64,000 nt of DNA, taken from positions 43,067-107,066 of the forward strand of contig JABHXU010000017.1 of assembly GCA_018657065.1 (NCBI GenBank), in the 5' to 3' direction. The stretch is from an archaeon. Its GTDB lineage: Archaea; Nanobdellota; Nanobdellia; Woesearchaeales; GW2011-AR15. Shown piece after piece: positions 18,741-22,295 of this stretch (position 1 is its first letter; every line of letters begins with the position of its first letter). The position numbers and the translations under genes are program-made. The notes under the pieces are model-generated. The model was not told the DNA's origin, ran no database searches, and was given only the letters and a program-made list of their open reading frames with translations.

Positions 18741-21700
18741 ATGTTTGGCGCTGACGAAGCAACTTATTGGTCAGATGAAACAGAATTATTTTTTGAAAGA
18801 TCAGTAGTTTGGTTAACAGAATTTGTAGATACAGATGGTGACGGAACACCAGACTTCGAAGATAATTGTCCTTGTTCATATAATCCAGGTCAAGAAGATG
18901 CAGATGGAGATGGACTAGGAGATATTTGTGATAATTGTCCAGTTAATTATAATCCAAATCAAGCAGACAATGATGGAGATACATTAGGAAATGTTTGTGA
19001 TATCTGTCCAGATGACACAGGTAATGATGCAGATAGTGATGGTTTTTGTTACCCAGTTGATTGTGTCGACACAGATAATACTATTTATCCAGGTGCGGAT
19101 GAAACTGTTTGTAATGGAATAGATAATGATTGTGATATCCTTTTAGATGAAGATTACGAAGAGGTTTCTTGTGGAGAGGGTGATTGTTCTGGAATGACTT
19201 CTTGCGAATTTGGTGAAATTTTTTGTAAAAATCAAGAAATAAATCAAGCAGGAAGTGATTGTGGAACTTGTTGTCAATGTGAAAATGATAATGATCCTCA
19301 AGAAGTATATGATGGAGCTCAAGATTTAGATTGTTCAGGTAATAATTTGCCTGGAATTTCAACTTGTAATAGTGATCCAGATAATAATCCAATGACATAT
19401 GATACTGCTGTTGGTTTTATTAGTGAATGCAGTGCAATTGATGTGTGTACAGAGGGAGAATATGAATTTAATCATGAATGTGATGTAGACTCTTGTGATG
19501 CAGAATGTGAAGATGGAAATTTCGAAGATGGAGATGGATGTAGTTCATCTTGTATTTTAGAAATTTGTGGAGATAATATTTTACATGAAACATTAGGAGA
19601 AGAATGCGACGATGGTAATACAGTCGATTTAGATGGTTGTGATGCAAGTTGTGTTATTGAATACTGTGGAGACGGTATTGATAATGATGCAGACAATGAA
19701 GAATGTGATGATGGTAATGATGTCGATGACGATGCATGTTCAAATTTATGTGTAACTAATTACTGTGGGGATTCAATCACTAATAATGGTGAAGAATGTG
19801 ATGATGGTAATAACGCAGACGGAGATGGATGTTCCGCATTATGTTTAGATGAATATTGTGGAGACGGTATTGACAATGATGCAGACAATGAAGAATGTGA
19901 TGATGGTAATGACGTAGATGACGATGCATGTTCAAACTTATGTGTAACTAATTACTGTGGGGATTCAATCACTAATAATGGTGAAGAATGTGATGATGGT
20001 AATAACGCAGACGGAGATGGATGTTCCGCATTATGTTTAGATGAATATTGCGGAGATGGAATACCTCAACCAGGTGAACAATGTGATGATGGTAATAATG
20101 TTAATGGAGATGGATGTGACAGTTTATGTGTTTCAGAAGTTTGTGGGAATGGTATACCTCAATTTGGTGAAGTTTGTGATGATGGTAATTTAGATGATAC
20201 AGATGCATGTTTAAGTGATTGTACGGCACCAGTTTGTGGTGATAGTATTGTATGGTTTGGCCATGAAGAATGTGATGATGGTGCAAATGGGATTGATACT
20301 GATGAATGTACAGATTCATGTACTTTAACTTATTGTGGAGATCAAACTCTTCAAATTTGGAATGGAAATAATGAAGTTGAAGAATGTGATGATGGTGCAG
20401 ATGGAGATGATACAAATACTTGTTATGATGATTGTTCATTTACATATTGTGGAGATTCTATAGTTCAAGATCCAAATGGATACGGAGTTAGTGAAGTTTG
20501 TGATGGCAATTCAATAGTTTGTGAAAACTTTGAAGGATATGCAGGAACAAGAGAATGTCAAAGTTCATGTAGAGGATTCGAAGATTGTCACACTGATGAA
20601 TATTGTGGAGATTCAATTACAAATGGATTAGAAGAATGTGATGATGGTAATAATGTTAATAATGATGGATGTGATGCATTTTGTGTCATTGAATATTGTG
20701 GAGATTCAATTACAAACGGATTAGAAGAATGTGATGATGGAAACAATGATGATGGTGATGGATGTGACGCAAGTTGTTATGACGAAATTTGTGGAAATAA
20801 TATATTGCAATTTGGTGAACAATGTGATGATGGAAACAATGATGATGAAGATGGATGTTCTTCTCAATGTGTTATTGAGTCATGTGGAGACACAATTGTT
20901 CAACTTGGATTAGGTGAAGAATGTGATGATGGTCAAGGAGATAACACTGATTCATGTCTAGATACATGTATGGACGCTGAGTGCGGAGATACATTTGTAT
21001 GGGATGGACAAGAAGAATGTGATGACGGAAACACAATCGATTTAGACGGTTGTGATGCAAGTTGTGTTATTGAATACTGTGGAGACGGAATAATCAATAA
21101 TGTTAATGAAATCTGTGACGAAGGTATTGATAATGGAGAACCTCTTCATTGTGACGCAGAATGTGGTGGAATAACTCTTCCAGTTTGTGGAAACTCTTAT
21201 CTTGAAGAAGGAGAGGAATGTGATGATAGTAATGTAGAAAATAATGACGGTTGTAATTCCGTTTGTGTCCTAGAAATATGTGGTGATGGAATTGTTCAGG
21301 ATGGTATTGGCGAAGAATGTGAATACGATAACCAATGTAATGATCAAGATTATCATACTGCAGACTATTGTGTAGAATGTGGTTGTGAAAATCCAATTAT
21401 TTGTGAAGATGAATGTCTTCCAACTAGTGAAGATATTTGTTCAGAGGATAGTGACTCAATCTTAGAATGTAGAAATGATTTTGATTCAGATCCATGTTAC
21501 GAATATGGTCCTAAATATGATTGTACAAATAACGAAGCATGTACAGTTATAGATCTAGATGAAGCATATTGTGGATCTTGCCAAACAAATTGTGGAGGAA
21601 AATGTTATTACACTCAAACAATTTATGGTGAATGGTCATGCGGCGAAGGAGATTGTTTATACACACCAGTAATTGAGTTTATTGACATTGATAATGATTA

Positions 21701-22295
21701 CATTGATGATAGATGTGATGATTGTATTGATCTAGATAAGGATGGTATTTGTGACCATGAAGATACTTGTCCAGATGTTTATAATCCAACAAACGTAGAT
21801 ACTGATGGAGATGGTGTAGGAAATGCTTGTGACTATGATAGAGATAATGATGGGTATGATGCATCAGTAGATTGTCATGATTGGGACAAAGATATTAATC
21901 CAGGTATGAAAGAAATTAAGGGAGACGGGAAAGATAATGACTGTGATCCACTAACTTCAGACAAAGAAATCAAAATTAGAAGTCAAGATTTATTGCTTGG
22001 AACAAAAATCATGAACGAAGACACAGCAATTGATGATAGAGAATTAAGAGTAGCTGTTTATGTCAAAAACAAAGGAAGTAAAACTGCTAAAAATATTAAA
22101 CTTAAAGCAACACTTCTAGATGAATATGTTTCTGACGAAACAATTATGCCAACTCTTAAAGCAGGAAAAACTAGTAGAGTAATCTTAAATATTCCTCTTT
22201 ATGGTGGAGTAATGCCAGATGAATACTACTTAAGAACTACATTAAGTGTTGAAACAGTAAAAAAAGCAAAATATAGTCAAGTGTTATTGCACTGA
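18741..22295 (+). CDS. Giant cysteine-rich repeat protein: thrombospondin type-3-like Ca-binding repeats + about 20 Myxococcus-type cysteine-rich repeats (CGDG..EECDDGN...DGC...C) + C-terminal CARDB-like domain
   Basis: 1184 aa. DTDGDGTPDFEDNCPCSYNPGQEDADGDGLGDICDNCP (TSP3-like). Reiterated YCGDxI..GEECDDGNNxDGDGC(S/D)xxC units. TSP3-like repeats again near the C-terminus, then a beta-rich tail. No N-terminal signal peptide at the annotated ATG. Confidence 0.8.
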   Translation: MFGADEATYWSDETELFFERSVVWLTEFVDTDGDGTPDFEDNCPCSYNPGQEDADGDGLGDICDNCPVNYNPNQADNDGDTLGNVCDICPDDTGNDADSDGFCYPVDCVDTDNTIYPGADETVCNGIDNDCDILLDEDYEEVSCGEGDCSGMTSCEFGEIFCKNQEINQAGSDCGTCCQCENDNDPQEVYDGAQDLDCSGNNLPGISTCNSDPDNNPMTYDTAVGFISECSAIDVCTEGEYEFNHECDVDSCDAECEDGNFEDGDGCSSSCILEICGDNILHETLGEECDDGNTVDLDGCDASCVIEYCGDGIDNDADNEECDDGNDVDDDACSNLCVTNYCGDSITNNGEECDDGNNADGDGCSALCLDEYCGDGIDNDADNEECDDGNDVDDDACSNLCVTNYCGDSITNNGEECDDGNNADGDGCSALCLDEYCGDGIPQPGEQCDDGNNVNGDGCDSLCVSEVCGNGIPQFGEVCDDGNLDDTDACLSDCTAPVCGDSIVWFGHEECDDGANGIDTDECTDSCTLTYCGDQTLQIWNGNNEVEECDDGADGDDTNTCYDDCSFTYCGDSIVQDPNGYGVSEVCDGNSIVCENFEGYAGTRECQSSCRGFEDCHTDEYCGDSITNGLEECDDGNNVNNDGCDAFCVIEYCGDSITNGLEECDDGNNDDGDGCDASCYDEICGNNILQFGEQCDDGNNDDEDGCSSQCVIESCGDTIVQLGLGEECDDGQGDNTDSCLDTCMDAECGDTFVWDGQEECDDGNTIDLDGCDASCVIEYCGDGIINNVNEICDEGIDNGEPLHCDAECGGITLPVCGNSYLEEGEECDDSNVENNDGCNSVCVLEICGDGIVQDGIGEECEYDNQCNDQDYHTADYCVECGCENPIICEDECLPTSEDICSEDSDSILECRNDFDSDPCYEYGPKYDCTNNEACTVIDLDEAYCGSCQTNCGGKCYYTQTIYGEWSCGEGDCLYTPVIEFIDIDNDYIDDRCDDCIDLDKDGICDHEDTCPDVYNPTNVDTDGDGVGNACDYDRDNDGYDASVDCHDWDKDINPGMKEIKGDGKDNDCDPLTSDKEIKIRSQDLLLGTKIMNEDTAIDDRELRVAVYVKNKGSKTAKNIKLKATLLDEYVSDETIMPTLKAGKTSRVILNIPLYGGVMPDEYYLRTTLSVETVKKAKYSQVLLH
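19665..20048. repeat. Near-perfect tandem duplication, 2 x 192 bp, inside the cysteine-rich repeat gene
   Basis: 19665-19856 and 19857-20048 differ at about 5 nt. Both encode CGDGIDNDADNEECDDGNDVDDDACSNLCVTNYCGDSITNNGEECDDGNNADGDGCSALCLDEY. Confidence 0.8.

Follow-up and report, generated by a model that had tools for sequence, protein, structure and literature searches.

Cysteine-rich repeats of the Myxococcus type (TIGR02232/DUF4215) form long tandem arrays within multi-domain secreted proteins, as in Haliangium ochraceum (P0041), many Polyangia, and Kofleriaceae. The repeating unit, CG[DN]G..x..E.CDDGN...DGC...C, has four Cys residues in ~31–38 amino acids. To our knowledge, no function is known for the DUF4215 repeat in any organism. 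Twelve DUF4215 repeats are present in the diatom adhesive-trail protein Ca5255 (bioRxiv 10.1101/2023.03.06.531300). In DPANN archaea, giant surface proteins ("SPEARE", SVXNc_0300, and BNXNv_0298) have been described, and the few organism-specific rearrangements that distinguish otherwise collinear nanohaloarchaeal genomes include giant surface-protein genes (PMC10266531).

Here, we analyzed a cysteine-rich ORF of a DPANN (Woesearchaeota-like) archaeon, located in a 64-kb stretch of DNA (hereafter the window). The ORF does not represent a novel type of system; it is an ordinary example of a known protein type, and its array is built from the same four-Cys unit as the TIGR02232/DUF4215 proteins. 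We consider it, with a probability of about 0.8, to be what remains, after 5' truncation, of a gene for a large secreted surface protein. Unlike the bacterial proteins, it belongs to an AT-rich DPANN archaeon, its array is flanked by thrombospondin type-3 (TSP3), MopE, and CARDB elements, its intact relatives carry a ThuA-like N-terminal domain, and the 5' end of this copy is gone. Ca5255, likened here by description, contains the same repeat family but is eukaryotic and has another domain context. The intact orthologue of the window ORF (3074 aa) resembles the DPANN giant surface proteins in being an acidic, modular protein with a signal peptide from a small-genome archaeon; this likeness, also drawn by description, concerns size, location, and variability only. 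Of the "SPEARE" traits, Pfam scans of the window ORF gave no VirB4-like ATPase and no Ig/fibronectin array, and the ORF has no membrane anchor of its own.

Domain organization of the cysteine-rich ORF

The 1184-aa ORF proposed in the earlier note was recovered on the + strand with an ATG start (Table 1). It contains 123 Cys residues (10.4%) rather than the ~190 first estimated, whereas the 43 other analyzed ORFs together contain 91. The assignment to the Myxococcus cysteine-rich repeat was confirmed by scores far above the cut-offs for both TIGR02232 (249.5 bits, E 8.5e-76, 15 stretches; cut-off 20.8) and DUF4215 (Pfam PF13948; 138.3 bits, E 9e-41, 13 stretches; cut-off 27). The regular expression C[DE][DEG][GSD] detected 17 repeat cores, nearly all CDDG, at residues 256–830 and two degenerate units, and 14 units match the strict full pattern. 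The previous figure of about 20 repeats was therefore a fair one, with 15–19 counted from the profile stretches and the regular expression. The Cys pattern is kept in 17/17 repeat cores, and an alignment of 35 sequences shows no variation at the Cys, D, and G positions. An AF2 model of five repeats (pLDDT 80, pTM 0.40) has hardly any regular secondary structure.

Table 1 Features of the cysteine-rich ORF and its surroundings (positions in the window).
Feature	Position	Strand	Remarks
Winged-helix gene	18011–18289	+	92 aa; HTH_27 26 bits and HVO_A0114 27.6 bits (Pfam); left edge of variable interval
Noncoding spacer in place of the lost 5' part	18290–18614	none	Stops in every frame
In-frame ThuA/GATase1-like N-domain remnant	18615–18740	+	5' of annotated ATG; preceded by TAA at 18612–18614
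Cysteine-rich ORF	18741–22295	+	1184 aa, ATG start; probable body of a secreted acidic surface-protein gene, 5'-truncated
ThuA/GATase1-like domain fragment	18741–18824	+	Residues 1–28; last strand and C-terminal helix
N-terminal TSP3 repeats	18825–19016	+	Residues 29–92; Pfam TSP_3 29.4 bits (cut-off 25)
N-terminal MopE-type putative metal-binding motif	19059–19130	+	Residues 107–130; PF11617 25.5 bits, just under cut-off 27
Cysteine-rich linker module	19131–19505	+	Residues ~131–255; no Pfam match; conserved in P0124, P0006, and P0003
Myxococcus-type cysteine-rich acidic repeat array	19506–21350	+	15–19 units of ~31–38 aa, 4 Cys each; direct-repeat families D1–D4
Tandemly duplicated 192-nt unit (64 aa, two repeats)	19658–20056	+	TRF: 2.1 copies, 97% identity
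C-terminal cysteine-rich module	21351–21680	+	Residues ~871–980; no Pfam match; conserved in P0003, P0006, and P0124
C-terminal TSP3 repeats	21681–21857	+	Residues 981–1039; Pfam TSP_3 21.1 bits, under cut-off 25
C-terminal MopE-type putative metal-binding motif	21870–21950	+	Residues ~1044–1070; PF11617 28.2 bits, above cut-off 27; MopE 2vov E 0.0045
CARDB-like β-sandwich domain	21987–22229	+	Residues ~1083–1163; PF07705
DHH/DHHA1 phosphoesterase gene	22356–23702	−	Pfam; convergent with the ORF; conserved right edge
rpS15	23754–24209	−	Beyond the DHH gene

The copy number of the duplicated 192-nt unit is 1, 2, or 3 depending on the assembly, and the proteins of the cluster accordingly have 1120, 1184, or 1248 aa. 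The one-copy forms for which contigs were fetched (P0141) are all on k141-named contigs, a style of name that we take to be that of MEGAHIT, so that they may be due to assembly collapse.

TSP3 repeats (PF02412) had been proposed for both ends of the protein, and they are present at both. In a phmmer comparison with the PDB, the N-terminal copy matched COMP (3fby, E 7e-25) and thrombospondin-2 (E 7.5e-21), and its coding region has a 69-nt tandem periodicity across 18861–19011. The C-terminal copy, which scores below the Pfam threshold, was recognized by PDB similarity to TSP-1 (1ux6, E 1.5e-5) and a TSP-2 domain (E 1.3e-4). The DxDxDGxxDxxDNCP motifs align residue by residue with those of COMP and TSP-2, and their DxDxDGxxD cores probably bind calcium, judging from the sequence. 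Unlike thrombospondin and COMP (PDB 3fby, 1yo8, 2rhp, and 1ux6), the ORF has only ~3 units per end, and the C-terminal lectin-like globe, EGF repeats, and coiled coil are absent. On either side of the array lies a MopE-type motif (PF11617; DC.D.D..I.PG..E..(N/D)G.DNDCD), a pair that the earlier note does not mention. The likeness to Methylococcus MopE (PDB 2vov) is confined to this short motif, and the structure match is weak. The CARDB-like domain at the C terminus is as previously described (24.0 bits for the whole protein and 29.2 bits for the C-terminal segment; cut-off 22.7), and no anchor, transmembrane or otherwise, lies beyond it (maximum Kyte–Doolittle 15-residue mean of the C terminus, 0.91).

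Missing 5' end and intact relatives

The absence of a signal peptide was also confirmed: the N terminus is acidic, and its best 10-residue Kyte–Doolittle mean is 1.19, our signal-peptide calls being made with this simple hydrophobicity measure and not with SignalP or another dedicated predictor. In the intact relatives P0121, P0123, and P0124 and in a neighboring surface protein, the N-terminal maximum is 2.9–3.7, which is signal-peptide-like. The extracellular location suggested previously thus stands for the family, whose members carry N-terminal signal peptides, but not for the window copy, which has no export signal although export is expected for a disulfide-rich repeat protein.

The reading frame had been noted to remain open for about 120 nt upstream without an ATG. 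It is open for 126 nt (18615–18740), and GTG and TTG are also absent. A phmmer search with the translation of window:18615–18824 against 1.84 billion representatives gave 16 matches at E ≤ 0.001. Residues 173–235 of P0121 (E 4.6e-15) align with query residues 8–70, and residues 172–240 of P0121, P0123, and P0124 align with query residues 5–70, so the match covers ~35 codons upstream of the ATG. When the intact relatives were used as tblastn queries, the alignments began at 18627–18642 in the same frame as the ORF, and residues 1–172 had no counterpart in the spacer or the rest of the 64-kb window. The N-domain homology runs ~100 nt 5' of the annotated ATG through start-less sequence and ends near the stop codon. 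The complete ~210-aa ThuA/GATase1-like domain that follows the signal peptide in the relatives is reduced to less than one third in the window. This domain has no Pfam match and was likened to ThuA-like and class I glutamine amidotransferase-like domains (PDB 4jqs, 1t0b, and 3rht) at a sequence identity of only 4–12%. The breakpoint of the 5' loss is at about 18615–18630, where no direct or inverted repeat was found; the spacer before it likewise contains neither kind of repeat, has no Rfam match, and gives a fold z-score of −2.25. Upstream of the ATG, there is no TATA-like motif at −24 to −35 (present in 17/45 other genes) and no Shine–Dalgarno-like (SD-like) motif at −6 to −18 (such a motif is found in eight further genes). 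The annotated start is no more than the first Met codon left in frame in the remaining sequence. The puzzle of the missing signal peptide is therefore explained by 5' truncation of this copy and is not a trait of the family.

The gene for P0124 (3074 aa; locus L005) is directly upstream of a DHH gene and rpS15, both on the − strand, as in the window. Residues 7–299 of the extended window translation (from 18615 onward) correspond to P0124 residues 173–465 (56% identity), and residues 315–1225 correspond to residues 2160–3074 (49% identity), through the last residue. The cysteine-rich linker module falls inside the first of these matches, and the C-terminal cysteine-rich module lies inside the second, which covers the last 915 residues of P0124. 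The central ~1700 residues of the orthologue are also absent from the window copy. The two genes are positional orthologues by their collinear sequence and their downstream neighbors, with DHH (50% identical), rpS15 (69% identical), and Smr following in both loci; the upstream flank is not common. The genome of the related archaeon that has this collinear orthologue has a GC content of 48%. In L005 and L006, the start of the giant gene is overlapped by a gene whose 193–207-aa product has both a signal peptide and a membrane anchor, whereas no such partner gene is present in the window.

The remnant has not decayed. Its identity to P0121, counted in the tblastn alignment, is 56% in the untranslated part and 58% in the 38 translated residues that adjoin it, and the Cys patterns are kept, which indicates that the loss is recent. 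Alternatively, selection may still act on the truncated gene, given that its reading frame is uninterrupted over ~3.5 kb at a genomic GC content of 28%.

Genomic locus and assemblies

The winged-helix (wHTH) gene described as a regulator immediately upstream is indeed the adjoining gene, but it ends 451 nt away and does not abut the ORF. A regulatory role for the cysteine-rich gene was not supported: homologues with 69–72% identity lie beside DHH in L007, L008, and L009, Woesearchaeota loci without a giant gene, which makes it an ancestral DHH neighbor and not a dedicated regulator. No two of the genomes examined have the same cargo between wHTH and DHH, which measures 12 nt, 1.4 kb, 2.4 kb, 4 kb, or at least 17 kb. 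The same structure of the ORF was found in 7/7 assemblies examined. Outside the duplicated unit, five of them match the window exactly. A sixth departs from it by one synonymous change inside the unit, and the seventh by three substitutions, none of which falls within the ORF.

Proposed history and alternative explanations

Here, we propose the following history on the basis of the intact relatives. In these relatives, the protein begins with a Sec-type signal peptide, followed by the ~210-aa ThuA/GATase1-like domain, TSP3 repeats, MopE-type motifs, long cysteine-rich arrays including DUF4215, a second TSP3/MopE unit, and the CARDB-like β-sandwich. Its gene is translationally coupled to the small upstream gene (193–207 aa; signal peptide and C-terminal membrane anchor). 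The intact protein may form an extended cell-surface fibre, a rod stabilized by disulfide bonds and bound calcium, that possibly is tethered to the cell through the small membrane protein and mediates contact with other cells or a host. Such an adhesin or host-contact role would fit the proposals made for large DPANN surface proteins (PMC10266531). In the lineage of the window, a deletion or rearrangement in the variable wHTH–DHH interval probably took away the partner gene together with the signal peptide and ~170 residues from the start of the N-domain. Because a product without an export signal cannot reach an oxidizing compartment, the window copy has presumably lost its function and is probably a young, undecayed pseudogene, or at best encodes a nonexported product.

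It is unlikely that the ORF is instead an intact functional gene whose product leaves the cell by a nonclassical route or acts in the cytoplasm. Its 1184 codons are uninterrupted, with the Cys pattern intact in every repeat, and P0006, from another genome (L003), begins near the same domain boundary (MKIKANNERIV...), and comparison of 262 codons between the two loci gives a dN/dS of about 0.15. If both copies came from one truncated ancestor, this would speak for a functional protein that lacks a signal peptide. However, the weight of L003 is lowered by the 3.7× coverage and the chimeric, GC-rich junk 3' end of its contig, and its upstream context and breakpoint are unlike those of the window. 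Homology that continues upstream of the ATG, through sequence with no start codon, up to the stop codon, and an ATG without promoter or SD-like signals, also argue against an intact gene. The 28 retained N-terminal residues, the last strand and helix of a ~210-aa GATase1-like domain, cannot form the fold alone. Nor would a protein that has 10% Cys and TSP3 calcium sites be expected to fold in the reducing cytoplasm.

The variable interval invites a wider reading, which we regard as improbable, that it is a hot spot where giant genes are exchanged, shortened, and switched off, the 5'-less copy being a cassette or "off" state or else a selected signal-less protein with a new role. Its narrower form, in which recombination or phase variation swaps the body of a silent donor cassette or "off" copy onto an expressed 5' end elsewhere, is highly improbable. 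In its favor are the other cargo in every genome examined, the two relatives cut close to one domain boundary, the repeat copy number that varies by assembly, and the rearranged giant surface-protein genes of nanohaloarchaea (PMC10266531). However, the breakpoint is free of inverted and direct repeats, the 64-kb window contains no N-domain or paralogue and no recombinase gene nearby, a single identical state is found in 7/7 assemblies, and the variation in copy number may have arisen during assembly. The earlier note suggested horizontal acquisition and named a contaminant contig as a possible refutation; a recent acquisition from Myxococcota or another bacterium and a contaminated or chimeric contig are both hardly credible. 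Most named matches among 6825 homologues are from Myxococcota or Deltaproteobacteria, and the local GC content exceeds that of the flanks (0.35 versus about 0.27). However, the GC content of the ORF (34.9%) agrees with that expected from its amino acid composition and the background codon usage (35.3%), and its GC3 of 12.3% matches the background of 14.0 ± 2.9%; the codon usage is native, and therefore neither contamination nor recent transfer is supported. Moreover, the nearest relatives are archaeal, collinear, and syntenic (49–56% identity versus 33–46% for bacterial matches), archaeal genes for rpS15, FtsZ, and DHH lie in the flanks, and the seven assemblies agree in structure. It is possible that the repeat module itself was transferred into this archaeal clade long ago.

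Implications

Truncation resolves the apparent paradox that a protein containing 10% cysteine as well as calcium-binding repeats should lack an export signal. The public annotation as a full-length "DUF4215 domain-containing protein" hides a truncated gene. The intact relatives illustrate that a small-genome DPANN clade has very large secreted proteins in which thrombospondin-, MopE-, and Myxococcus-type modules are joined with a ThuA-like head. These giant genes occupy a locus that varies among related genomes, and these points are useful background on host contact in such archaea.

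Repeat architecture of the cysteine-rich protein

The ORF of the cysteine-rich repeat protein was confirmed at its annotated ends and encodes 1184 aa. The earlier note had described it essentially correctly with one number wrong, as the protein contains 123 Cys residues, not about 190. The 43 other window ORFs analyzed contain 91 Cys combined. Asp, Gly, Cys, and Glu make up 17.6%, 10.8%, 10.4%, and 8.9% of the residues, respectively. The proposed Myxococcus-type repeats were recovered by the TIGR02232 profile (NCBIfam "cysteine-rich acidic repeat"; 249.5 bits, E 8.5e-76, 15 stretches) and by Pfam DUF4215 (138 bits, 13 stretches). 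A regular-expression search of the protein found 17 C[DE][DEG][GSD] cores, nearly all CDDG, and two degenerate units, and the DNA periodicity of the array (93–99 nt) matches the protein repeats. Thrombospondin type-3 (TSP3) repeats had been placed at both ends, and residues 29–92 and 981–1039 indeed show a residue-by-residue match to the type-3 repeats of COMP (E 7e-25) and thrombospondin-1 and -2; in the Pfam TSP_3 segment scan, the N-terminal end scored above the cut-off of 25 (29.4), but the C-terminal end fell below it (21.1). The suggested CARDB-like domain was detected by Pfam (29.2 bits; cut-off 22.7), as were two MopE-type putative metal-binding motifs (PF11617). The linker modules matched no Pfam family.

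A 192-nt unit, which encodes 64 aa with two repeats, is duplicated in the window (97% identity). It occurs in one, two, or three copies in otherwise identical contigs (the window and L011–L015, contigs of the ORF from other assemblies), and the encoded protein is correspondingly 1120, 1184, or 1248 aa long. Every one-copy contig fetched is k141-named, and those with more copies are NODE-named; we take these names to be MEGAHIT- and SPAdes-style, respectively. Because of this naming, the spread may reflect assembly collapse as an assembler artefact, or it may be true population heterogeneity. In the protein P0144, the patch NTVDLDGC of one copy exactly matches the repeat before it, a pattern resembling gene conversion.

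The ORF is a 5′-truncated gene

The ORF frame is open from 18615, and no ATG, GTG, or TTG was found in the 126 nt upstream of the annotated start. The N-terminus of the protein is acidic, not hydrophobic, and no hydrophobic leader was found in the extended reading or in the other two frames, bearing out the absence of a signal peptide. A 70-aa translation of 18615–18824 (42 upstream codons and the first 28 residues) was searched against 1.84 billion representative proteins, and 16 proteins matched with E values up to 0.001. The three best full-length matches were P0121 (1718 aa, E 4.6e-15), P0123 (1427 aa), and P0124 (3074 aa). These relatives are intact, each with a leader that is first basic and then hydrophobic (e.g., MANAKRSISIIFLLTIILAFPAFSA) and an N-domain that matched no Pfam family. 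Their residues 172–240 align with query positions 5–70; thus, the homology reaches into the stretch upstream of the ATG, where initiation is not possible. When the first 245 residues of the three relatives were compared with the whole 64-kb window by tblastn, the alignments started at 18627–18642 in the ORF frame, and no counterpart of residues 1–172 was found within the window. The window gene is a 5′-truncated copy of a gene for a modular secreted protein rich in Cys and Asp, and hence a damaged member of an already known kind. The missing signal peptide, which had been considered a puzzle, is accounted for by the truncation, since the homology to intact relatives extends upstream of the ATG.

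The P0124 gene, on a contig of 112 kb with 48% GC, lies directly upstream of a convergent DHH phosphoesterase gene (50% identity), rpS15 (69%), and Smr, an arrangement shared with the window. Counted from 18615, window residues 7–299 match P0124 residues 173–465 with 56% identity, and residues 315–1225 match residues 2160–3074 with 49% identity, through the last residue. Because the matches run in the same order along both proteins, the window gene lacks the first 172 and about 1700 central residues relative to P0124. P0003, a relative with 56% identity, adjoins rpS15 and Smr on another contig, and its 5′ end lies beyond the contig edge. The region past these two genes (on L004) is probably an integrated element near the same locus. 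A search of the genome contigs with the C-terminal 326 aa of the ORF protein found no relative.

In the tblastn alignment, the identity to P0121 is 56% over 36 untranslatable codons versus 58% over the next 38 translated residues, and the Cys pattern is intact in every repeat core. Given this even identity and the intact cores, neutral decay has barely started and the truncation is recent.

Alternative explanations

The main rival explanation is that the window protein and P0006, the relative at locus L003, share a form without a signal peptide that is kept by selection. P0006 also starts close to the domain boundary, and the dN/dS ratio of its first 262 codons against the window is ~0.15. However, its breakpoint and upstream context are unlike those of the window, and the L003 contig has 3.7x coverage and ends in GC-rich junk. 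We take P0006 to be either mis-assembled or the outcome of a separate truncation. As to initiation at ATG 18741, about 17 of 45 other genes carry a TATA-like motif (TTTATATA/TTTAAATA-like) 24–35 nt upstream of the start codon, whose position suggests that leaderless transcripts are widespread in the genome. A smaller set of 8 more genes has SD-like motifs (GGTG/GAGG at −6 to −18). Neither motif was found in the positions scanned upstream of ATG 18741, but this is weak evidence against initiation there because 20 other genes also lack both.

An identical protein (MBT4858562.1, "DUF4215 domain-containing protein [archaeon]") is encoded on contig JABJDO010000035.1 of GCA_018665325.1. An independent ENA assembly agrees with the window at every position of the 9.5 kb surrounding the gene, and the NCBI contig has one synonymous difference. 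The neighbors and the upstream sequence recur in five more contigs, all from other assemblies; four equal the window outside the duplicated unit and one has three substitutions, none in the ORF. The ORF is thus identical across seven contigs outside this unit, and a chimeric assembly was ruled out because the seven assemblies agree. The contamination raised earlier, and horizontal acquisition if recent, did not survive the comparison of composition. GC3 of the ORF is 12.3% versus a background of 14.0 ± 2.9%, and its raised GC (34.9%) is as predicted from amino acid composition and background codon usage (35.3%). There is no compositional sign that the gene is foreign, and neither recent transfer nor contamination is supported. 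The flanking genes encode rpS15, a DHH/DHHA1 phosphoesterase, FtsZ, and a diphthine-synthase-type methylase, and comparison of the DHH and wHTH proteins places Candidatus Woesearchaeota MAGs nearest among the named genomes. A 149-nt tRNA match elsewhere in the window is read as an intron-containing archaeal tRNA.

The locus and its neighbors

Coordinates of the features discussed (in the window unless a locus is named)
Feature	Location	Size	Description
tRNA match	9159–9307 (+)	149 nt	Rfam; absent from ARAGORN output
MATCAP protein	11883–12590 (−)	235 aa	Pfam MATCAP (microtubule-associated tyrosine carboxypeptidase), E 1.4e-24
1063-aa protein	13657–16848 (+)	1063 aa	Clear signal peptide, HEFMH (HExxH) motif, C-terminal transmembrane segment, basic tail
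wHTH	18011–18289 (+)		451 nt upstream of ORF
Spacer	18290–18614	325 nt	Weak fold signal, z −2.25
ORF	18741–22295 (+)	1184 aa	Cysteine-rich repeat protein
Duplicated unit	19658–20056	192 nt per unit	
T-rich repeat	22298–22346	21-nt unit x2.3	Between ORF stop codon and convergent DHH
DHH	22356–23702 (−)		Phosphoesterase
999-aa surface protein	39770–42769 (+)	999 aa	Signal peptide, MopE-type motif, PKD domain, transmembrane segment
1366-aa protein	42766–46866 (+)	1366 aa	HerA/DUF87/FtsK-type ATPase domain, C-terminal TPR repeats; gene overlaps 999-aa gene just upstream
wHTH–DHH interval	Window	4.0 kb	Truncated gene
wHTH–DHH interval	L007	12 nt	
wHTH–DHH interval	L008	~1.4 kb	Two genes: GGDEF protein, uncharacterized protein
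wHTH–DHH interval	L009	~2.4 kb	Two uncharacterized proteins
DHH-side interval	L005 (P0124 locus)	≥17 kb island	No wHTH within 8 kb
Small partner gene	L005, 7403–8026; L006, 7423–8004	193–207 aa	Overlaps giant-gene start; signal peptide, C-terminal membrane anchor
1155-aa protein	L006 (P0121 locus), 2002–5469	1155 aa	Upstream of P0121; seven Disintegrin-domain stretches (E 5.6e-21), MopE motifs
Region past rpS15 and Smr	L004 (P0003 contig), 6871–14748		Tyrosine-recombinase (phage integrase), HTH, UvrD-type helicase, MmeI-type restriction-modification genes

The wHTH gene had been linked to the Cys-rich gene, but its homologues (69–72% identity) adjoin DHH in three Woesearchaeota-type MAGs without the giant gene (L007–L009). 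Because the pair occurs without this gene and the content between differs by genome, the two genes were neighbors first, and what lies between them is variable cargo. The interval appears to be an insertion/deletion hot spot, and the wHTH does not travel with the Cys-rich gene as its regulator. The spacer had no Rfam match, and neither repeats nor inverted repeats were found at the breakpoint. The T-rich repeat may act as an oligo-T terminator region for both convergent genes.

The small partner gene, conserved between L005 and L006, is absent from the window. Its products matched no Pfam family, and they may serve as membrane anchor or assembly partner of the giant protein. The 1155-aa protein is a further eukaryote-like Cys-rich module in the archaeal clade. 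Elsewhere in the window, the 1063-aa protein had no Pfam match and may be a membrane-anchored metalloprotease, and MATCAP is an unusual family for an archaeon. The pairing of the 999-aa surface protein with the 1366-aa ATPase recalls the gene neighborhood described for DPANN giant proteins.

Proposed structure and role

An AF2 model of five DUF4215 repeats (pLDDT 80, pTM 0.40) has hardly any regular secondary structure, and this prediction is consistent with a string of small knotted modules. A Foldseek search of the PDB with the array model gave nothing with E < 0.05; the best matches were local ones of 34–39 residues to PAPP-A, with weak matches to ADAM disintegrin/Cys-rich regions. The profile search of the PDB gave spurious matches only. 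Thus, no solved structure of a DUF4215 repeat, or one significantly similar, was found in the PDB searches. InterPro marks the DUF4215 repeat in pappalysins. TSP3 repeats are well known from the structures of COMP and thrombospondins. Based on these structures and the four Cys per DUF4215 unit, we infer that the intact protein would be an extended fiber, stiffened by TSP3-bound calcium and DUF4215 disulfide bonds.

A DUF4215 protein occurs among the adhesive trail proteins of diatoms (bioRxiv 10.1101/2023.03.06.531300), and giant variable surface proteins of DPANN archaea have been proposed as mediators of host interaction (PMC10266531). In the library searched, no literature tying DUF4215, TIGR02232, or thrombospondin repeats to DPANN or Woesearchaeota was found. 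By analogy, a role in surface contact would fit the intact protein. The window copy most likely yields no exported product, because both the leader and the partner gene are missing from it.
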